Below, piece by piece: positions 751 through 38,119 of a stretch of DNA of 38,926 bases (positions are counted from its first letter, which is position 1; every line of letters begins with the position of its first letter). A program made the translations under genes and the position numbers. Where the stretch lies: sequence record MZ375241.1. One strand, written 5' to 3'. Below the pieces are notes generated by a model. That model made no database searches, was not told where the DNA came from, and worked only from the letters and a program-made list of their open reading frames with translations. The stretch comes from Escherichia phage T7.

Positions 751-862
751 TGAAACGACAGTGAGTCACCACACTGAAAGGTGATGCGGTCTAACGAAAC
801 CTGACCTAAGACGCTCTTTAACAATCTGGTAAATAGCTCTTGAGTGCATGACTAGCGGATAA

Positions 863-889
863 CTCAAGGGTATCGCAAGGTGCCCTTTA
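863..889 (+). promoter_or_regulatory. RNase III processing hairpin R0.3 upstream of ocr
   Basis: ctcaaggg...gcccttt hairpin of the same family as the other T7 RNase III sites. Confidence 0.55.
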
Positions 890-924
890 TGATATTCACT
901 AATAACTGCACGAGGTAACACAAG

Positions 925-1409: not shown

Positions 1410-1457
1410 CCAACACACTGAACGCTATCTCATAACGAACATAAAGGACACAATGCA

Positions 1458-2537
1458 ATGAACATTACCGACATCATGAACGCTATCGACGCAATCAAAG
1501 CACTGCCAATCTGTGAACTTGACAAGCGTCAAGGTATGCTTATCGACTTACTGGTCGAGATGGTCAACAGCGAGACGTGTGATGGCGAGCTAACCGAACT
1601 AAATCAGGCACTTGAGCATCAAGATTGGTGGACTACCTTGAAGTGTCTCACGGCTGACGCAGGGTTCAAGATGCTCGGTAATGGTCACTTCTCGGCTGCT
1701 TATAGTCACCCGCTGCTACCTAACAGAGTGATTAAGGTGGGCTTTAAGAAAGAGGATTCAGGCGCAGCCTATACCGCATTCTGCCGCATGTATCAGGGTC
1801 GTCCTGGTATCCCTAACGTCTACGATGTACAGCGCCACGCTGGATGCTATACGGTGGTACTTGACGCACTTAAGGATTGCGAGCGTTTCAACAATGATGC
1901 CCATTATAAATACGCTGAGATTGCAAGCGACATCATTGATTGCAATTCGGATGAGCATGATGAGTTAACTGGATGGGATGGTGAGTTTGTTGAAACTTGT
2001 AAACTAATCCGCAAGTTCTTTGAGGGCATCGCCTCATTCGACATGCATAGCGGGAACATCATGTTCTCAAATGGAGACGTACCATACATCACCGACCCGG
2101 TATCATTCTCGCAGAAGAAAGACGGTGGCGCATTCAGCATCGACCCTGAGGAACTCATCAAGGAAGTCGAGGAAGTCGCACGACAGAAAGAAATTGACCG
2201 CGCTAAGGCCCGTAAAGAACGTCACGAGGGGCGCTTAGAGGCACGCAGATTCAAACGTCGCAACCGCAAGGCACGTAAAGCACACAAAGCTAAGCGCGAA
2301 AGAATGCTTGCTGCGTGGCGATGGGCTGAACGTCAAGAACGGCGTAACCATGAGGTAGCTGTAGATGTACTAGGAAGAACCAATAACGCTATGCTCTGGG
2401 TCAACATGTTCTCTGGGGACTTTAAGGCGCTTGAGGAACGAATCGCGCTGCACTGGCGTAATGCTGACCGGATGGCTATCGCTAATGGTCTTACGCTCAA
2501 CATTGATAAGCAACTTGACGCAATGTTAATGGGCTGA
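1458..2537 (+). CDS. 0.7: Serine/threonine protein kinase / host transcription shut-off protein
   Basis: 359-aa ORF matching T7 gp0.7. Confidence 0.95.
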
Positions 2538-2607
2538 TAGTCTTATCTTACAGGTCATCTGCGGGTGGCCTGAATAGGTACGATTTACTAACTGGAAGAG
2601 GCACTAA

Positions 2608-5259
2608 ATGAACACGATTAACATCGCTAAGAACGACTTCTCTGACATCGAACTGGCTGCTATCCCGTTCAACACTCTGGCTGACCATTACGGTGAGCGT
2701 TTAGCTCGCGAACAGTTGGCCCTTGAGCATGAGTCTTACGAGATGGGTGAAGCACGCTTCCGCAAGATGTTTGAGCGTCAACTTAAAGCTGGTGAGGTTG
2801 CGGATAACGCTGCCGCCAAGCCTCTCATCACTACCCTACTCCCTAAGATGATTGCACGCATCAACGACTGGTTTGAGGAAGTGAAAGCTAAGCGCGGCAA
2901 GCGCCCGACAGCCTTCCAGTTCCTGCAAGAAATCAAGCCGGAAGCCGTAGCGTACATCACCATTAAGACCACTCTGGCTTGCCTAACCAGTGCTGACAAT
3001 ACAACCGTTCAGGCTGTAGCAAGCGCAATCGGTCGGGCCATTGAGGACGAGGCTCGCTTCGGTCGTATCCGTGACCTTGAAGCTAAGCACTTCAAGAAAA
3101 ACGTTGAGGAACAACTCAACAAGCGCGTAGGGCACGTCTACAAGAAAGCATTTATGCGAGTTGTCGAGGCTGACATGCTCTCTAAGGGTCTACTCGGTGG
3201 CGAGGCGTGGTCTTCGTGGCATAAGGAAGACTCTATTCATGTAGGAGTACGCTGCATCGAGATGCTCATTGAGTCAACCGGAATGGTTAGCTTACACCGC
3301 CAAAATGCTGGCGTAGTAGGTCAAGACTCTGAGACTATCGAACTCGCACCTGAATACGCTGAGGCTATCGCAACCCGTGCAGGTGCGCTGGCTGGCATCT
3401 CTCCGATGTTCCAACCTTGCGTAGTTCCTCCTAAGCCGTGGACTGGCATTACTGGTGGTGGCTATTGGGCTAACGGTCGTCGTCCTCTGGCGCTGGTGCG
3501 TACTCACAGTAAGAAAGCACTGATGCGCTACGAAGACGTTTACATGCCTGAGGTGTACAAAGCGATTAACATTGCGCAAAACACCGCATGGAAAATCAAC
3601 AAGAAAGTCCTAGCGGTCGCCAACGTAATCACCAAGTGGAAGCATTGTCCGGTCGAGGACATCCCTGCGATTGAGCGTGAAGAACTCCCGATGAAACCGG
3701 AAGACATCGACATGAATCCTGAGGCTCTCACCGCGTGGAAACGTGCTGCCGCTGCTGTGTACCGCAAGGACAAGGCTCGCAAGTCTCGCCGTATCAGCCT
3801 TGAGTTCATGCTTGAGCAAGCCAATAAGTTTGCTAACCATAAGGCCATCTGGTTCCCTTACAACATGGACTGGCGCGGTCGTGTTTACGCTGTGTCAATG
3901 TTCAACCCGCAAGGTAACGATATGACCAAAGGACTGCTTACGCTGGCGAAAGGTAAACCAATCGGTAAGGAAGGTTACTACTGGCTGAAAATCCACGGTG
4001 CAAACTGTGCGGGTGTCGATAAGGTTCCGTTCCCTGAGCGCATCAAGTTCATTGAGGAAAACCACGAGAACATCATGGCTTGCGCTAAGTCTCCACTGGA
4101 GAACACTTGGTGGGCTGAGCAAGATTCTCCGTTCTGCTTCCTTGCGTTCTGCTTTGAGTACGCTGGGGTACAGCACCACGGCCTGAGCTATAACTGCTCC
4201 CTTCCGCTGGCGTTTGACGGGTCTTGCTCTGGCATCCAGCACTTCTCCGCGATGCTCCGAGATGAGGTAGGTGGTCGCGCGGTTAACTTGCTTCCTAGTG
4301 AAACCGTTCAGGACATCTACGGGATTGTTGCTAAGAAAGTCAACGAGATTCTACAAGCAGACGCAATCAATGGGACCGATAACGAAGTAGTTACCGTGAC
4401 CGATGAGAACACTGGTGAAATCTCTGAGAAAGTCAAGCTGGGCACTAAGGCACTGGCTGGTCAATGGCTGGCTTACGGTGTTACTCGCAGTGTGACTAAG
4501 CGTTCAGTCATGACGCTGGCTTACGGGTCCAAAGAGTTCGGCTTCCGTCAACAAGTGCTGGAAGATACCATTCAGCCAGCTATTGATTCCGGCAAGGGTC
4601 TGATGTTCACTCAGCCGAATCAGGCTGCTGGATACATGGCTAAGCTGATTTGGGAATCTGTGAGCGTGACGGTGGTAGCTGCGGTTGAAGCAATGAACTG
4701 GCTTAAGTCTGCTGCTAAGCTGCTGGCTGCTGAGGTCAAAGATAAGAAGACTGGAGAGATTCTTCGCAAGCGTTGCGCTGTGCATTGGGTAACTCCTGAT
4801 GGTTTCCCTGTGTGGCAGGAATACAAGAAGCCTATTCAGACGCGCTTGAACCTGATGTTCCTCGGTCAGTTCCGCTTACAGCCTACCATTAACACCAACA
4901 AAGATAGCGAGATTGATGCACACAAACAGGAGTCTGGTATCGCTCCTAACTTTGTACACAGCCAAGACGGTAGCCACCTTCGTAAGACTGTAGTGTGGGC
5001 ACACGAGAAGTACGGAATCGAATCTTTTGCACTGATTCACGACTCCTTCGGTACCATTCCGGCTGACGCTGCGAACCTGTTCAAAGCAGTGCGCGAAACT
5101 ATGGTTGACACATATGAGTCTTGTGATGTACTGGCTGATTTCTACGACCAGTTCGCTGACCAGTTGCACGAGTCTCAATTGGACAAAATGCCAGCACTTC
5201 CGGCTAAAGGTAACTTGAACCTCCGTGACATCTTAGAGTCGGACTTCGCGTTCGCGTAA
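2608..5259 (+). CDS. 1: T7 DNA-dependent RNA polymerase (single subunit)
   Basis: 883-aa ORF; recognisable T7 RNAP sequence ending ...DILESDFAFA. Confidence 0.98.
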   Translation: MNTINIAKNDFSDIELAAIPFNTLADHYGERLAREQLALEHESYEMGEARFRKMFERQLKAGEVADNAAAKPLITTLLPKMIARINDWFEEVKAKRGKRPTAFQFLQEIKPEAVAYITIKTTLACLTSADNTTVQAVASAIGRAIEDEARFGRIRDLEAKHFKKNVEEQLNKRVGHVYKKAFMRVVEADMLSKGLLGGEAWSSWHKEDSIHVGVRCIEMLIESTGMVSLHRQNAGVVGQDSETIELAPEYAEAIATRAGALAGISPMFQPCVVPPKPWTGITGGGYWANGRRPLALVRTHSKKALMRYEDVYMPEVYKAINIAQNTAWKINKKVLAVANVITKWKHCPVEDIPAIEREELPMKPEDIDMNPEALTAWKRAAAAVYRKDKARKSRRISLEFMLEQANKFANHKAIWFPYNMDWRGRVYAVSMFNPQGNDMTKGLLTLAKGKPIGKEGYYWLKIHGANCAGVDKVPFPERIKFIEENHENIMACAKSPLENTWWAEQDSPFCFLAFCFEYAGVQHHGLSYNCSLPLAFDGSCSGIQHFSAMLRDEVGGRAVNLLPSETVQDIYGIVAKKVNEILQADAINGTDNEVVTVTDENTGEISEKVKLGTKALAGQWLAYGVTRSVTKRSVMTLAYGSKEFGFRQQVLEDTIQPAIDSGKGLMFTQPNQAAGYMAKLIWESVSVTVVAAVEAMNWLKSAAKLLAAEVKDKKTGEILRKRCAVHWVTPDGFPVWQEYKKPIQTRLNLMFLGQFRLQPTINTNKDSEIDAHKQESGIAPNFVHSQDGSHLRKTVVWAHEKYGIESFALIHDSFGTIPADAANLFKAVRETMVDTYESCDVLADFYDQFADQLHESQLDKMPALPAKGNLNLRDILESDFAFA

Positions 5260-5267
5260 CGCCAAAT

Positions 5268-5290
5268 CAATACGACTCACTATAGAGGGA
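5268..5290 (+). promoter_or_regulatory. T7 RNAP promoter phi1.1A (+1 at 5285)
   Basis: caatacgactcactatagaggga. Confidence 0.85.
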
Positions 5291-5294
5291 CAAA

Positions 5295-5324
5295 CTCAAG
5301 GTCATTCGCAAGAGTGGCCTTTAT
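5295..5324 (+). promoter_or_regulatory. RNase III site R1.1
   Basis: ctcaaggtcattcgcaagagtggccttt hairpin, the classic R1.1 substrate. Confidence 0.7.
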
Positions 5325-5342
5325 GATTGACCTTCTTCCGGT

Positions 5343-5365
5343 TAATACGACTCACTATAGGAGAA
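5343..5365 (+). promoter_or_regulatory. T7 RNAP promoter phi1.1B (+1 at 5360)
   Basis: taatacgactcactataggagaa. Confidence 0.85.
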
Positions 5366-5443
5366 CCTTAAGGTTTAACTTTAAGACCCTTAAGTGTTAA
5401 TTAGAGATTTAAATTAAAGAATTACTAAGAGAGGACTTTAAGT

Positions 5444-5572
5444 ATGCGTAACTTCGAAAAGATGACCAAACGTTCTAACCGTAATGCTCGTGACTTCGAG
5501 GCAACCAAAGGTCGCAAGTTGAATAAGACTAAGCGTGACCGCTCTCACAAGCGTAGCTGGGAGGGTCAGTAA
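5444..5572 (+). CDS. 1.1: Small basic protein, function unknown
   Basis: 42-codon ORF MRNFEKMTKRSNRNARDFEATKGRKLNKTKRDRSHKRSWEGQ with RBS; T7 gene 1.1 position. Confidence 0.8.
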   Translation: MRNFEKMTKRSNRNARDFEATKGRKLNKTKRDRSHKRSWEGQ

Positions 5573-5573
5573 G

Positions 5574-5831
5574 ATGGGACGTTTATATAGTGGTAATCTG
5601 GCAGCATTCAAGGCAGCAACAAACAAGCTGTTCCAGTTAGACTTAGCGGTCATTTATGATGACTGGTATGATGCCTATACAAGAAAAGATTGCATACGGT
5701 TACGTATTGAGGACAGGAGTGGAAACCTGATTGATACTAGCACCTTCTACCACCACGACGAGGACGTTCTGTTCAATATGTGTACTGATTGGTTGAACCA
5801 TATGTATGACCAGTTGAAGGACTGGAAGTAA
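5574..5831 (+). CDS. 1.2: Inhibitor of host dGTP triphosphohydrolase
   Basis: ATG at 5574 one base after the 1.1 stop; 85 aa; six-frame ORF 5535-5831 carries an upstream extension. Confidence 0.85.
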   Translation: MGRLYSGNLAAFKAATNKLFQLDLAVIYDDWYDAYTRKDCIRLRIEDRSGNLIDTSTFYHHDEDVLFNMCTDWLNHMYDQLKDWK

Positions 5832-5851
5832 TACGACTCAGTATAGGGACA
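5829..5851 (+). promoter_or_regulatory. T7 RNAP promoter phi1.3 (+1 at 5846)
   Basis: taatacgactcagtatagggaca. Confidence 0.85.
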
Positions 5852-5855
5852 ATGC

Positions 5856-5882
5856 TTAAGGTCGCTCTCTAGGAGTGGCCTT
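5856..5882 (+). promoter_or_regulatory. RNase III site R1.3
   Basis: ttaaggtcgctctctaggagtggcctt hairpin. Confidence 0.6.
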
Positions 5883-5911
5883 AGTCATTTAACCAATAGG
5901 AGATAAACATT

Positions 5912-6991
5912 ATGATGAACATTAAGACTAACCCGTTTAAAGCCGTGTCTTTCGTAGAGTCTGCCATTAAGAAGGCTCTGGATAACGCTGGGTATCTTAT
6001 CGCTGAAATCAAGTACGATGGTGTACGCGGGAACATCTGCGTAGACAATACTGCTAACAGTTACTGGCTCTCTCGTGTATCTAAAACGATTCCGGCACTG
6101 GAGCACTTAAACGGGTTTGATGTTCGCTGGAAGCGTCTACTGAACGATGACCGTTGCTTCTACAAAGATGGCTTTATGCTTGATGGGGAACTCATGGTCA
6201 AGGGCGTAGACTTTAACACAGGGTCCGGCCTACTGCGTACCAAATGGACTGACACGAAGAACCAAGAGTTCCATGAAGAGTTATTCGTTGAACCAATCCG
6301 TAAGAAAGATAAAGTTCCCTTTAAGCTGCACACTGGACACCTTCACATAAAACTGTACGCTATCCTCCCGCTGCACATCGTGGAGTCTGGAGAAGACTGT
6401 GATGTCATGACGTTGCTCATGCAGGAACACGTTAAGAACATGCTGCCTCTGCTACAGGAATACTTCCCTGAAATCGAATGGCAAGCGGCTGAATCTTACG
6501 AGGTCTACGATATGGTAGAACTACAGCAACTGTACGAGCAGAAGCGAGCAGAAGGCCATGAGGGTCTCATTGTGAAAGACCCGATGTGTATCTATAAGCG
6601 CGGTAAGAAATCTGGCTGGTGGAAAATGAAACCTGAGAACGAAGCTGACGGTATCATTCAGGGTCTGGTATGGGGTACAAAAGGTCTGGCTAATGAAGGT
6701 AAAGTGATTGGTTTTGAGGTGCTTCTTGAGAGTGGTCGTTTAGTTAACGCCACGAATATCTCTCGCGCCTTAATGGATGAGTTCACTGAGACAGTAAAAG
6801 AGGCCACCCTAAGTCAATGGGGATTCTTTAGCCCATACGGTATTGGCGACAACGATGCTTGTACTATTAACCCTTACGATGGCTGGGCGTGTCAAATTAG
6901 CTACATGGAGGAAACACCTGATGGCTCTTTGCGGCACCCATCGTTCGTAATGTTCCGTGGCACCGAGGACAACCCTCAAGAGAAAATGTAA
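5912..6991 (+). CDS. 1.3: ATP-dependent DNA ligase
   Basis: 359-aa ORF; AEIKYDGVRG adenylation motif (KxDG). Confidence 0.95.
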   Translation: MMNIKTNPFKAVSFVESAIKKALDNAGYLIAEIKYDGVRGNICVDNTANSYWLSRVSKTIPALEHLNGFDVRWKRLLNDDRCFYKDGFMLDGELMVKGVDFNTGSGLLRTKWTDTKNQEFHEELFVEPIRKKDKVPFKLHTGHLHIKLYAILPLHIVESGEDCDVMTLLMQEHVKNMLPLLQEYFPEIEWQAAESYEVYDMVELQQLYEQKRAEGHEGLIVKDPMCIYKRGKKSGWWKMKPENEADGIIQGLVWGTKGLANEGKVIGFEVLLESGRLVNATNISRALMDEFTETVKEATLSQWGFFSPYGIGDNDACTINPYDGWACQISYMEETPDGSLRHPSFVMFRGTEDNPQEKM

Positions 6992-7447: not shown

Positions 7448-8029
7448 TGGGACTGTTAGATGGTGAAGCCTGGGAAAAAGAAAACCCGCCAGTACAAGCA
7501 ACTGGGTGTATAGCTTGCTTAGAGAAAGATGACCGTTATCCACACACCTGTAACAAAGGAGCTAACGATATGACCGAACGTGAACAAGAGATGATCATTA
7601 AGTTGATAGACAATAATGAAGGTCGCCCAGATGATTTGAATGGCTGCGGTATTCTCTGCTCCAATGTCCCTTGCCACCTCTGCCCCGCAAATAACGATCA
7701 AAAGATAACCTTAGGTGAAATCCGAGCGATGGACCCACGTAAACCACATCTGAATAAACCTGAGGTAACTCCTACAGATGACCAGCCTTCCGCTGAGACA
7801 ATCGAAGGTGTCACTAAGCCTTCCCACTACATGCTGTTTGACGACATTGAGGCTATCGAAGTGATTGCTCGTTCAATGACCGTTGAGCAGTTCAAGGGAT
7901 ACTGCTTCGGTAACATCTTAAAGTACAGACTACGTGCTGGTAAGAAGTCAGAGTTAGCGTACTTAGAGAAAGACCTAGCGAAAGCAGACTTCTATAAAGA
8001 ACTCTTTGAGAAACATAAGGATAAATGTT

Positions 8030-10442: not shown

Positions 10443-12312
<1,870 letters not shown>

Positions 12313-12842: not shown

Positions 12843-12853
12843 GAGTGGTATCC

Positions 12854-12880
12854 TCAAGGTCGCCAAAGTGGTGGCCTTCA
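12854..12880 (+). promoter_or_regulatory. RNase III site R4.7
   Basis: ctcaaggtcgccaaagtggtggcctt hairpin. Confidence 0.55.
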
Positions 12881-12886
12881 TGAATA

Positions 12887-12909
12887 CTATTCGACTCACT
12901 ATAGGAGAT
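12887..12909 (+). promoter_or_regulatory. T7 RNAP promoter phi4.7 (+1 at 12904)
   Basis: ctattcgactcactataggagat. Confidence 0.8.
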
Positions 12910-13341: not shown

Positions 13342-15456
13342 ATGATCGTTTCTGACATCGAAGCTAACGCCCTCTTAGAGAGCGTCACTAAGTTCCACTG
13401 CGGGGTTATCTACGACTACTCCACCGCTGAGTACGTAAGCTACCGTCCGAGTGACTTCGGTGCGTATCTGGATGCGCTGGAAGCCGAGGTTGCACGAGGC
13501 GGTCTTATTGTGTTCCACAACGGTCACAAGTATGACGTTCCTGCATTGACCAAACTGGCAAAGTTGCAATTGAACCGAGAGTTCCACCTTCCTCGTGAGA
13601 ACTGTATTGACACCCTTGTGTTGTCACGTTTGATTCATTCCAACCTCAAGGACACCGATATGGGTCTTCTGCGTTCCGGCAAGTTGCCCGGAAAACGCTT
13701 TGGGTCTCACGCTTTGGAGGCGTGGGGTTATCGCTTAGGCGAGATGAAGGGTGAATACAAAGACGACTTTAAGCGTATGCTTGAAGAGCAGGGTGAAGAA
13801 TACGTTGACGGAATGGAGTGGTGGAACTTCAACGAAGAGATGATGGACTATAACGTTCAGGACGTTGTGGTAACTAAAGCTCTCCTTGAGAAGCTACTCT
13901 CTGACAAACATTACTTCCCTCCTGAGATTGACTTTACGGACGTAGGATACACTACGTTCTGGTCAGAATCCCTTGAGGCCGTTGACATTGAACATCGTGC
14001 TGCATGGCTGCTCGCTAAACAAGAGCGCAACGGGTTCCCGTTTGACACAAAAGCAATCGAAGAGTTGTACGTAGAGTTAGCTGCTCGCCGCTCTGAGTTG
14101 CTCCGTAAATTGACCGAAACGTTCGGCTCGTGGTATCAGCCTAAAGGTGGCACTGAGATGTTCTGCCATCCGCGAACAGGTAAGCCACTACCTAAATACC
14201 CTCGCATTAAGACACCTAAAGTTGGTGGTATCTTTAAGAAGCCTAAGAACAAGGCACAGCGAGAAGGCCGTGAGCCTTGCGAACTTGATACCCGCGAGTA
14301 CGTTGCTGGTGCTCCTTACACCCCAGTTGAACATGTTGTGTTTAACCCTTCGTCTCGTGACCACATTCAGAAGAAACTCCAAGAGGCTGGGTGGGTCCCG
14401 ACCAAGTACACCGATAAGGGTGCTCCTGTGGTGGACGATGAGGTACTCGAAGGAGTACGTGTAGATGACCCTGAGAAGCAAGCCGCTATCGACCTCATTA
14501 AAGAGTACTTGATGATTCAGAAGCGAATCGGACAGTCTGCTGAGGGAGACAAAGCATGGCTTCGTTATGTTGCTGAGGATGGTAAGATTCATGGTTCTGT
14601 TAACCCTAATGGAGCAGTTACGGGTCGTGCGACCCATGCGTTCCCAAACCTTGCGCAAATTCCGGGTGTACGTTCTCCTTATGGAGAGCAGTGTCGCGCT
14701 GCTTTTGGCGCTGAGCACCATTTGGATGGGATAACTGGTAAGCCTTGGGTTCAGGCTGGCATCGACGCATCCGGTCTTGAGCTACGCTGCTTGGCTCACT
14801 TCATGGCTCGCTTTGATAACGGCGAGTACGCTCACGAGATTCTTAACGGCGACATCCACACTAAGAACCAGATAGCTGCTGAACTACCTACCCGAGATAA
14901 CGCTAAGACGTTCATCTATGGGTTCCTCTATGGTGCTGGTGATGAGAAGATTGGACAGATTGTTGGTGCTGGTAAAGAGCGCGGTAAGGAACTCAAGAAG
15001 AAATTCCTTGAGAACACCCCCGCGATTGCAGCACTCCGCGAGTCTATCCAACAGACACTTGTCGAGTCCTCTCAATGGGTAGCTGGTGAGCAACAAGTCA
15101 AGTGGAAACGCCGCTGGATTAAAGGTCTGGATGGTCGTAAGGTACACGTTCGTAGTCCTCACGCTGCCTTGAATACCCTACTGCAATCTGCTGGTGCTCT
15201 CATCTGCAAACTGTGGATTATCAAGACCGAAGAGATGCTCGTAGAGAAAGGCTTGAAGCATGGCTGGGATGGGGACTTTGCGTACATGGCATGGGTACAT
15301 GATGAAATCCAAGTAGGCTGCCGTACCGAAGAGATTGCTCAGGTGGTCATTGAGACCGCACAAGAAGCGATGCGCTGGGTTGGAGACCACTGGAACTTCC
15401 GGTGTCTTCTGGATACCGAAGGTAAGATGGGTCCTAATTGGGCGATTTGCCACTGA
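13342..15456 (+). CDS. 5: DNA polymerase (family A, thioredoxin-binding)
   Basis: 704-aa [30 protein letters not shown]... Confidence 0.97.
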
Positions 15457-17395: not shown

Positions 17396-17496
17396 CGTAT
17401 ATTGGTCTGGGTCTTTGTGTTCTCGGAGTGTGCCTCATTTCGTGGGGCCTTTGGGACTTAGCCAGAATAATCAAGTCGTTACACGACACTAAGTGA
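17383..17496 (+). CDS. 6.3: Small hydrophobic protein (GTG start)
   Basis: 37-codon ORF overlapping the end of gene 6. Confidence 0.55.
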   Translation: METVAYIGLGLCVLGVCLISWGLWDLARIIKSLHDTK

Positions 17497-17500
17497 TAAA

Positions 17501-17553
17501 CTCAAGGTCCCTAAATTAATACGACTCACTATAGGGAGATAGGGGCCTTTACG
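17501..17553 (+). promoter_or_regulatory. RNase III hairpin R6.5 enclosing promoter phi6.5
   Basis: ctcaaggtcc ... aggggccttt inverted repeat spanning the promoter. Confidence 0.55.
17517..17539 (+). promoter_or_regulatory. T7 RNAP class III promoter phi6.5 (+1 at 17534)
   Basis: taatacgactcactatagggaga, perfect consensus. Confidence 0.9.
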
Positions 17554-17593
17554 ATTATTACTTTAAGATTTAACTCTAAGAGGAATCTTTATT

Positions 17594-18119: not shown

Positions 18120-18520
18120 TGTCTGAGTTCACATGTGTGGAGGCTAAGAGTCGCTTCCGTGCAATCCGGTGGACTGTGGAACACCTTGGGTTGCCTAAAG
18201 GATTCGAAGGACACTTTGTGGGCTACAGCCTCTACGTAGACGAAGTGATGGACATGTCTGGTTGCCGTGAAGAGTACATTCTGGACTCTACCGGAAAACA
18301 TGTAGCGTACTTCGCGTGGTGCGTAAGCTGTGACATTCACCACAAAGGAGACATTCTGGATGTAACGTCCGTTGTCATTAATCCTGAGGCAGACTCTAAG
18401 GGCTTACAGCGATTCCTAGCGAAACGCTTTAAGTACCTTGCGGAACTCCACGATTGCGATTGGGTGTCTCGTTGTAAGCATGAAGGCGAGACAATGCGTG
18501 TATACTTTAAGGAGGTATAA
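18119..18520 (+). CDS. 7: Hypothetical protein
   Basis: ATG at 18119; 133 aa. Confidence 0.8.
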   Translation: MSEFTCVEAKSRFRAIRWTVEHLGLPKGFEGHFVGYSLYVDEVMDMSGCREEYILDSTGKHVAYFAWCVSCDIHHKGDILDVTSVVINPEADSKGLQRFLAKRFKYLAELHDCDWVSRCKHEGETMRVYFKEV

Positions 18521-18523
18521 GTT

Positions 18524-18823
18524 ATGGGTAAGAAAGTTAAGAAGGCCGTGAAGAAAGTCCCCAAGTCCGTTAAGAAAGTCGTTAAGGAAGGGGCTCGTCC
18601 GGTTAAACAGGTTGCTGGCGGTCTAGCTGGTCTGGCTGGTGGTACTGGTGAAGCACAGATGGTGGAAGTACCACAAGCTGCCGCACAGATTGTTGACGTA
18701 CCTGAGAAAGAGGTTTCCACTGAGGACGAAGCACAGACAGAAAGCGGACGCAAGAAAGCTCGTGCTGGCGGTAAGAAATCCTTGAGTGTAGCCCGTAGCT
18801 CCGGTGGCGGTATCAACATTTAA
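18524..18823 (+). CDS. 7.3: Basic Lys/Ala-rich virion (tail-associated) protein
   Basis: 99-aa ORF MGKKVKKAVKKVPKSVKKVVKEG... Confidence 0.8.
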   Translation: MGKKVKKAVKKVPKSVKKVVKEGARPVKQVAGGLAGLAGGTGEAQMVEVPQAAAQIVDVPEKEVSTEDEAQTESGRKKARAGGKKSLSVARSSGGGINI

Positions 18824-26215: not shown

Positions 26216-26245
26216 TTAAATATTCTCCCTGTGGTGGCTCGAAAT

Positions 26246-26268
26246 TAATACGACTCACTATAGGGAGA
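26246..26268 (+). promoter_or_regulatory. T7 RNAP class III promoter phi13 (+1 at 26263)
   Basis: taatacgactcactatagggaga. Confidence 0.9.
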
Positions 26269-26295
26269 ACAATACGACTACGGGAGGGTTTTCTT

Positions 26296-35541: not shown

Positions 35542-35811
35542 ATGGAAAAGGATAAGAGCCTTATTACATTCTTAGAGATGTTGGACACTGCGATGGCTCA
35601 GCGTATGCTTGCGGACCTTTCGGACCATGAGCGTCGCTCTCCGCAACTCTATAATGCTATTAACAAACTGTTAGACCGCCACAAGTTCCAGATTGGTAAG
35701 TTGCAGCCGGATGTTCACATCTTAGGTGGCCTTGCTGGTGCTCTTGAAGAGTACAAAGAGAAAGTCGGTGATAACGGTCTTACGGATGATGATATTTACA
35801 CATTACAGTGA
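35542..35811 (+). CDS. 18: Terminase small subunit (DNA maturation protein A)
   Basis: ATG at 35542; 89 aa. Confidence 0.85.
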   Translation: MEKDKSLITFLEMLDTAMAQRMLADLSDHERRSPQLYNAINKLLDRHKFQIGKLQPDVHILGGLAGALEEYKEKVGDNGLTDDDIYTLQ

Positions 35812-35814
35812 TAT

Positions 35815-35846
35815 ACTCAAGGCCACTACAGATAGTGGTCTTTATG
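35815..35846 (+). promoter_or_regulatory. RNase III site R18.5
   Basis: ctcaaggccactacagatagtggtcttt hairpin. Confidence 0.55.
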
Positions 35847-35905
35847 GATGTCATTGTCTATACGAGATGCTCCTACGTGAAATCTGAAAGTTAACGGGAG
35901 GCATT

Positions 35906-36358: not shown

Positions 36359-38119
36359 GTGTCTACTCAATCCAATCGTAATGCGCTCGTAGTGGCGCAA
36401 CTGAAAGGAGACTTCGTGGCGTTCCTATTCGTCTTATGGAAGGCGCTAAACCTACCGGTGCCCACTAAGTGTCAGATTGACATGGCTAAGGTGCTGGCGA
36501 ATGGAGACAACAAGAAGTTCATCTTACAGGCTTTCCGTGGTATCGGTAAGTCGTTCATCACATGTGCGTTCGTTGTGTGGTCCTTATGGAGAGACCCTCA
36601 GTTGAAGATACTTATCGTATCAGCCTCTAAGGAGCGTGCAGACGCTAACTCCATCTTTATTAAGAACATCATTGACCTGCTGCCATTCCTATCTGAGTTA
36701 AAGCCAAGACCCGGACAGCGTGACTCGGTAATCAGCTTTGATGTAGGCCCAGCCAATCCTGACCACTCTCCTAGTGTGAAATCAGTAGGTATCACTGGTC
36801 AGTTAACTGGTAGCCGTGCTGACATTATCATTGCGGATGACGTTGAGATTCCGTCTAACAGCGCAACTATGGGTGCCCGTGAGAAGCTATGGACTCTGGT
36901 TCAGGAGTTCGCTGCGTTACTTAAACCGCTGCCTTCCTCTCGCGTTATCTACCTTGGTACACCTCAGACAGAGATGACTCTCTATAAGGAACTTGAGGAT
37001 AACCGTGGGTACACAACCATTATCTGGCCTGCTCTGTACCCAAGGACACGTGAAGAGAACCTCTATTACTCACAGCGTCTTGCTCCTATGTTACGCGCTG
37101 AGTACGATGAGAACCCTGAGGCACTTGCTGGGACTCCAACAGACCCAGTGCGCTTTGACCGTGATGACCTGCGCGAGCGTGAGTTGGAATACGGTAAGGC
37201 TGGCTTTACGCTACAGTTCATGCTTAACCCTAACCTTAGTGATGCCGAGAAGTACCCGCTGAGGCTTCGTGACGCTATCGTAGCGGCCTTAGACTTAGAG
37301 AAGGCCCCAATGCATTACCAGTGGCTTCCGAACCGTCAGAACATCATTGAGGACCTTCCTAACGTTGGCCTTAAGGGTGATGACCTGCATACGTACCACG
37401 ATTGTTCCAACAACTCAGGTCAGTACCAACAGAAGATTCTGGTCATTGACCCTAGTGGTCGCGGTAAGGACGAAACAGGTTACGCTGTGCTGTACACACT
37501 GAACGGTTACATCTACCTTATGGAAGCTGGAGGTTTCCGTGATGGCTACTCCGATAAGACCCTTGAGTTACTCGCTAAGAAGGCAAAGCAATGGGGAGTC
37601 CAGACGGTTGTCTACGAGAGTAACTTCGGTGACGGTATGTTCGGTAAGGTATTCAGTCCTATCCTTCTTAAACACCACAACTGTGCGATGGAAGAGATTC
37701 GTGCCCGTGGTATGAAAGAGATGCGTATTTGCGATACCCTTGAGCCAGTCATGCAGACTCACCGCCTTGTAATTCGTGATGAGGTCATTAGGGCCGACTA
37801 CCAGTCCGCTCGTGACGTAGACGGTAAGCATGACGTTAAGTACTCGTTGTTCTACCAGATGACCCGTATCACTCGTGAGAAAGGCGCTCTGGCTCATGAT
37901 GACCGATTGGATGCCCTTGCGTTAGGCATTGAGTATCTCCGTGAGTCCATGCAGTTGGATTCCGTTAAGGTCGAGGGTGAAGTACTTGCTGACTTCCTTG
38001 AGGAACACATGATGCGTCCTACGGTTGCTGCTACGCATATCATTGAGATGTCTGTGGGAGGAGTTGATGTGTACTCTGAGGACGATGAGGGTTACGGTAC
38101 GTCTTTCATTGAGTGGTGA
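36359..38119 (+). CDS. 19: Terminase large subunit (GTG start)
   Basis: 586-aa ORF after RBS taaggagg. Confidence 0.95.
37005..37262 (+). CDS. 19.2: Internal alternative-frame ORF within gene 19
   Basis: Six-frame ORF 36993-37262 with candidate GTG at 37005; T7 gene 19.2 position; expression uncertain. Confidence 0.35.
37542..37715 (+). CDS. 19.3: Internal alternative-frame ORF within gene 19
   Basis: ATG at 37542; 57 codons; T7 gene 19.3 position; expression uncertain. Confidence 0.35.

Follow-up and report, generated by a model that had tools for sequence, protein, structure and literature searches.

Nine of the ten canonical RNase III processing sites of bacteriophage T7 are kept in a deletion variant that has lost R0.5

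The hairpins that recur between genes in the 38,926-nucleotide sequence of Escherichia phage T7 analysed here (record MZ375241.1, the whole of which is called the window) are almost certainly RNase III processing signals of bacteriophage T7, carried by a T7 deletion mutant. These sites are already known and are a textbook feature described decades ago, reportedly by Dunn and Studier in 1983. The window holds nine of the ten canonical sites, namely seven bipartite elements and two simple hairpins, R3.8 and R13 (Table 1). Each bipartite element consists of two coaxial helices in the sense-strand RNA, which together make about 20 bp or about two helical turns.

We compared the window with the T7 reference V01146 by BLAST and by reading of the junction sequences, which showed a laboratory variant of phage T7 with three deletions. 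The alignment fell into four colinear blocks with offsets of 0, +563, +719 and +1011. Over its first 12 kb, the window matched the mutant T7 record MZ375243 ('T7_60L') at 100% identity and the reference records V01146 and NC_001604 at 99.9%; over the 25 kb from 12001 to 37000, identity was 100% with further T7 records in the same series. The window differed from the T7 reference by 14 true point differences, none of them within 20 nt of any RNase III site discussed here. One, A to G, affects window 405, which is annotated as the +1 of promoter phiOL; another, T to C, is at window 162, two bases past the 160-bp terminal repeat.

Table 1. RNase III sites of the window, the R0.5 site of the reference and the three deletions. 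Positions are those of the window unless T7 numbering is indicated; stems are given as 5' arm/3' arm; model score is that of the covariance model built from T7 copies.
Feature	Position	Strand	Fold (kcal/mol)	z-score	Model score (bits)	Parts and neighbourhood
R0.3	853-901	+	-18	-3.2	54.2	Lower stem 853-861/893-901; upper stem 866-874/879-887; GCAA loop 875-878; 3' internal-loop strand UAUGA 888-892; identical to T7 853-901; element ends 24 nt before gene 0.3 (start 925)
R1	2539-2585	+		-2.1	47.1	Variant motif cuuaCAGGUCAUC-ugcg-GGUGGCCUGaau; upper stem 2551-2559/2564-2572; smaller internal loop; precedes gene 1 (start 2608); T3 R1 syntenic, annotated and matched by the model
R1.1	5284-5336	+	-22	-3.3	65.6	Lower stem 5284-5293/5327-5336; upper stem 5298-5307/5312-5321; GCAA loop 5308-5311; internal loop with 5' strand ACUC and 3' strand UAUGA 5322-5326; phi1.1A start 5285 directly upstream; phi1.1B 5360 and gene 1.1 (5444) downstream; equals T7 5847-5899
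R1.3	5846-5894	+	-22.8	-4.0	46.6	13-bp upper stem 5856-5868/5872-5884, the extra pairs largely closing the internal loop; begins at phi1.3 +1 (5846); ends 18 nt before gene 1.3 (start 5912)
R3.8	10457-10485	+		-3.0		Plain 12-bp hairpin with 5-nt loop; overlaps phi3.8 start (10461)
R4.7	12843-12892	+	-23.1	-3.5	60.6	Upper stem 12856-12865/12869-12878; phi4.7 start 12904 and gene 4.7 (12916) downstream
R6.5	17491-17563	+	-20.7	-2.8	55.9	Upper stem 17504-17513/17540-17549; 26-nt loop holding promoter phi6.5 (+1 at 17534); precedes gene 6.5 (start 17594)
R13	26223-26269	+	-27.2	-4.4 to -4.7		Long 15-bp hairpin with its 3' arm formed by the phi13 promoter core (+1 at 26263); precedes gene 13 (start 26296)
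R18.5	35805-35857	+	-23.8	-3.8	62.5	Upper stem 35819-35828/35833-35842; loop 35829-35832; 3' loop strand UAUGG; precedes gene 18.5 (start 35906)
R0.5 (reference)	T7 1430-1477		-23.9	-3.1		gACUCAAGGUCGCUCcuagcGAGUGGCCUUUAUGAUUAUCAC
Deletion, 563 bp	T7 1342-1904; window junction 1341/1342					From BLAST blocks and junction sequences
Deletion, 156 bp	T7 7608-7763; window junction 7044/7045					Gene 1.4; from junction reading
Deletion, 292 bp	T7 11254-11545; window junction 10534/10535					Inside gene 3.8; from junction reading

A first-pass annotation had listed six near-identical hairpins and named them R0.3, R1.1, R1.3, R4.7, R6.5 and R18.5. All six are present where it had placed them, on the + strand, and its names are borne out by BLAST mapping to V01146, by syntenic annotated stem-loops of T3 and by the covariance model built from T7 copies only. 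With the BLAST offsets, the six spans correspond to T7 863-889, 5858-5887, 6419-6445, 13865-13891, 18512-18564 and 36826-36857, which are, in the annotation of the T7 record, the gaps before genes 0.3, 1.1, 1.3, 4.7, 6.5 and 18.5. The position shortly upstream of a gene start was also correct, since the sites precede the next gene start by about 25-120 nt, with a T7 promoter lying between site and gene at R1.1 and R4.7. When folded as RNA with 65-88 nt of context, the six formed stable structures (-18 to -23.8 kcal/mol), with z-scores of -2.8 to -4.0 against shuffled sequences. The spans take in the inner part of each element, namely the upper stem-loop with the internal-loop strands on its two sides, and leave out the lower stem of all six; with this stem included, the full elements extend over 853-901, 5284-5336, 5846-5894, 12843-12892, 17491-17563 and 35805-35857. 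The list itself, with six real sites, missed R1, R3.8 and R13. The sequence ttatg, said often to follow the hairpin, is exact in three of the six (R0.3, R1.1 and R18.5) and is replaced by 'ttcatg' in R4.7, 'ttagtc' in R1.3 and 'tttacg' in R6.5. We rejected it as a start codon: it corresponds to the 3' side of the internal loop, UAUGA, in which RNase III is expected to cut.

The two-arm motif CTYAAGG..(6-45)..GSYCTT had seven matches on the + strand of the whole window and a single match on the - strand. In 300 dinucleotide-matched simulated sequences, about 0.17 occurrences per strand were expected and the maximum on one strand was two. The seventh + strand match, at 13645-13668 inside gene 5, was discarded as a chance match, because its arms are non-complementary and it has no covariance-model match.

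The bipartite sites, including R1, share a common architecture of lower stem, asymmetric internal loop, upper stem and terminal loop. In the six listed sites, the lower stem has 9-10 bp, the upper stem 9-13 bp (10 bp in most) and the terminal loop 3-4 nt, or 26 nt in R6.5. The internal loop has about 4 nt on its 5' side and 5 nt on its 3' side, most commonly ACUC and UAUGA, respectively. The fold z-scores of the bipartite elements of the window ranged from -2.1 to -4.0. We then aligned eight T7 copies (alignment A1), in which the six noted sites were joined by R1 of the window and by R0.5, taken from the reference. Standard pairs occupied 93.4% of the cells of this alignment, and 12 of the 19 pairs showed changes on both sides. 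None of 500 shuffled alignments reached any of the five measures used, and sliding the partner by 1-3 columns reduced pairing to 34-51%. In the lower stem, compensatory changes affected 7-8 of the nine pairs, both among the T7 copies and among the relatives described below. A covariance model built from A1, and thus from T7 copies only, was searched unfiltered over the window, where it recovered the seven training sites at 46.6-65.6 bits; this search of the window gave no further family member, the best other score being 15.9 bits (E 0.33). R3.8 and R13 were not matched by the family model in the whole window, nor were R3.8 and R13 of T3. A candidate 'R0.7' at T7 1972 (window 1409) was rejected: no fold was found (z +0.5 to +0.6), the position is that of the 0.6B stop codon, and R0.7 is absent from the ten sites of the T3 annotation and of PMC6938266.

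Stable, G+C-rich hairpins between genes, with a short U run after the stem (CCUUU), could also be transcription terminators or pause sites of the host or T7 RNA polymerase, and not cleavage signals. This reading is highly improbable, as only three U follow the stem, which is no real U tract, and a terminator scan flagged neither R1.1 nor R1.3. Moreover, the covarying lower stem pairs the flanks across the supposed tail, a stem that terminators do not have, and the T7 promoters located directly upstream of, or within, several of the elements must read through them.

RNase III processing signals at the same places are annotated in related phages. The record of T3 (NC_003298) contains ten stem-loops annotated 'RNase III recognition site', R0.3, R0.5, R1, R1.1, R1.3, R3.8, R4.7, R6.5, R13 and R18.5, at syntenic places, and that of phiYeO3-12 (AJ251805) contains the same set of ten, the second site being named R0.45. 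The arrangement of R6.5 with the promoter in its loop is annotated in both phages as well. The feature tables of V01146, NC_001604, PP384393 and MZ375243, as retrieved, show no RNase III features, so that the support from annotation comes from T3 and phiYeO3-12. The T7-only model, to which T3 supplied no sequence, gave eight matches over T3 (40.5-64.2 bits) and none besides, and these are all eight annotated bipartite stem-loops: R0.3, R0.5, R1, R1.1, R1.3, R4.7, R6.5 and R18.5. Eight matches were obtained in phiYeO3-12, six in K1F, six in K11 and none in gh-1, which brings the total, with those of T3, to 28. In the alignment of these matches 93.0% of the cells were paired and 15 of the 19 pairs showed changes on both sides. 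This alignment was fitted to the model, which biases it toward the structure; the slid controls (33-50%) show that the pairing signal is real despite this bias. In the K1F record, where RNase III sites are not annotated, two model matches lie upstream of gene 0.3, at 706-768 and 1029-1085 (37.9 and 43.8 bits), where T7 has one; they may reflect a duplication of the R0.3-type site. In Pseudomonas phage gh-1, 13 stem-loops bear the annotation 'putative RNase III recognition site', and none of them matched the T7-built model at E <= 0.01; either the Pseudomonas sites are of a different form or these annotations are weak. The core motif was also found in IMG/VR, where over 120 stretches of viral contigs contain it, most of them on contigs of about 40 kb. 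The search of Rfam gave no match over the whole window at the gathering score and none over 5250-5920 at E <= 1. The lack of a family for these elements in Rfam 15 is the one gap that emerged; the alignments A1 and A2 would suffice to seed such a family.

The elements might alternatively act in the DNA, as palindromes for a DNA-binding protein, for recombination or for replication, with an incidental RNA fold. Inverted repeats are symmetric in DNA, and R1.1 is located within the primary origin region, between phi1.1A and phi1.1B. The pairing, however, depends on conserved G·U wobbles, which are A·C mismatches on the other strand. At one stem position a U·G wobble is present in 6 of 8 T7 copies and in 21 of 26 sequences from relatives, so that the structure makes sense only in the RNA of the + strand. 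In the same way, the covariance model scored the sites at 47-66 bits on the sense strand and at about 13 bits on the reverse strand, the strands of the asymmetric loop are conserved in one orientation only, and every one of the 28 matches in relatives lies on the coding strand. An action at the DNA level therefore has hardly any probability left. Chance recurrence of a short motif, for which one could cite the 9-mer CTCAAGGKC (57 occurrences in the window with one mismatch allowed, mostly on the - strand inside genes, against 17.4 expected), is refuted by the seven + strand copies of the two-arm motif, by the covariation of the copies and by their conservation at syntenic places in four other phages.

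For the preferred reading, RNase III processing, the mechanism is taken from established knowledge. Host RNase III would bind the quasi-continuous double helix formed by the lower and the upper stem, and would cut on one strand only, the 3' loop strand just after CCUUUAU, the restriction to a single strand being due to the internal loop. Such cuts would turn both the early polycistronic transcript and the late transcripts that arise by read-through into separate, defined messages. The upstream product would then terminate in the upper stem-loop and be protected from 3' exonucleases, and the downstream message would acquire a new 5' end about 25-120 nt before its first gene. In the case of R6.5, with promoter phi6.5 within the loop, both arms are carried by read-through transcripts only. 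The cut positions reportedly given by Dunn and Studier 1983 are T7 890, 3138, 5887, 6450, 11203, 13892, 18563, 27281 and 36856, and so presumably 890, 2575, 5324, 5887, 10484, 12881, 17552, 26270 and 35845 in window numbering. Each of them lies at the 3' foot of an upper stem or hairpin and is consistent with the structures predicted here. The sites set the ends of T7 messages and stabilise the upstream messages through the 3' hairpin, and they are of use in models of T7 expression and as model RNase III substrates, R1.1 being the model substrate of the Nicholson laboratory. The value of the present analysis is a correct annotation.

Published work counts ten sites of RNase III cleavage in T7, with R3.8, R4.7, R6.5 and R13 among them (PMC6938266). 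The T7 early precursor of about 7 kb is cut at five sites, which yields mono- and dicistronic messages; in R1.1 RNA, E. coli RNase III cleaves a single phosphodiester (PMC4858673). The E. coli enzyme recognises about two double-helical turns of RNA; the internal loop restricts cleavage to a single bond, and the 3' hairpin left over shields the product from 3'-5' exonucleases (PMC1540722). The box rules for antideterminant base pairs of RNase III, in proximal and distal boxes, are set out in the same paper.

Compared with the bipartite T7 sites from R0.3 to R18.5, the elements of the window are identical over the site and 20-nt flanks and have the same order and neighbouring genes, the sole difference being the absence of R0.5 through the 563-bp deletion. 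The stem-loops of T3 and phiYeO3-12 (37-64 bits) resemble them in syntenic position, bipartite stem, internal-loop strands and the location of phi6.5 in a loop, but differ by many compensatory substitutions in the stems. R3.8 and R13 are likewise known RNase III sites of the same genome that are present in the window, and alignments showed them to be homologues of the stem-loops annotated under the same names in T3 and phiYeO3-12; in contrast to the bipartite elements, they are plain hairpins made from the promoter sequence itself, without internal loop or lower stem. Cellular substrates such as the stems of rRNA precursors share the host enzyme and the length of about two turns of double-stranded RNA (PMC1540722). 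In cellular substrates that are fully paired, both strands are cut, at positions staggered by 2 nt, whereas the internal loop of the T7 sites confines the cut to one strand.

The tenth canonical site, R0.5, is a textbook member of the family in the reference, and the first-pass annotation was right to place it in a deleted block, as the hairpin lies inside the 563-bp deletion (Table 1). Besides R0.5 and the E. coli B promoter, this deletion takes out genes 0.5 and 0.6A, most of 0.6B and the 3' part of gene 0.4. Its junction has a G microhomology of 1-2 nt, and the remnant of gene 0.4 runs into a TAG a few codons beyond it. With R0.5 absent, genes 0.3, the 0.4 remnant and 0.7 should, as we infer, be carried in this phage on one processed mRNA extending from R0.3 to R1. 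Four phage genera share the conserved loop strands ACUC and UAUGA and one conserved U·G pair. It seems very unlikely that the loss of R0.5 alters 0.7 expression in the mutant, or that the conservation of the loop strands and of the U·G pair reflects a constraint beyond the needs of RNase III. If it did, the constraint could be a second binding factor or a role in the translation of the downstream gene, and a single message might alter the expression of the 0.7 kinase and so the stimulation of RNase III that is driven by phosphorylation. The T7 0.7 kinase is known to stimulate RNase III (PMC4858673).

Several minor observations were made on the same sequence. The 9-mer GACCCTGAG is the commonest in the window apart from promoters and genome-end repeats and occurs seven times, all on the + strand (window 2142, 14467, 17234, 22652, 27782, 31084 and 31330). 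All seven copies are in-frame GAC-CCT-GAG codons (Asp-Pro-Glu) in different proteins, which indicates a codon and peptide-motif effect and no signal; they are the largest component of the excess of CTCAAGGKC-like words and account for part of it. The 156-bp deletion starts exactly at the ATG of gene 1.4 and extends into promoter phi1.5, where it reaches the first three bases (-17 to -15); the promoter sequence is thereby changed from TAATACGACTCACTAAAGGAG to cTTTTACGACTCACTAAAGGAG. After the 292-bp deletion, gene 3.8 (HNH endonuclease, start codon 10506) is open in frame into the gene 4A start at 10554, with a primase/helicase (4A) carrying a 16-residue N-terminal extension as the predicted outcome, and the annotation of MZ375243 begins the CDS of this gene 4A region at 10506.
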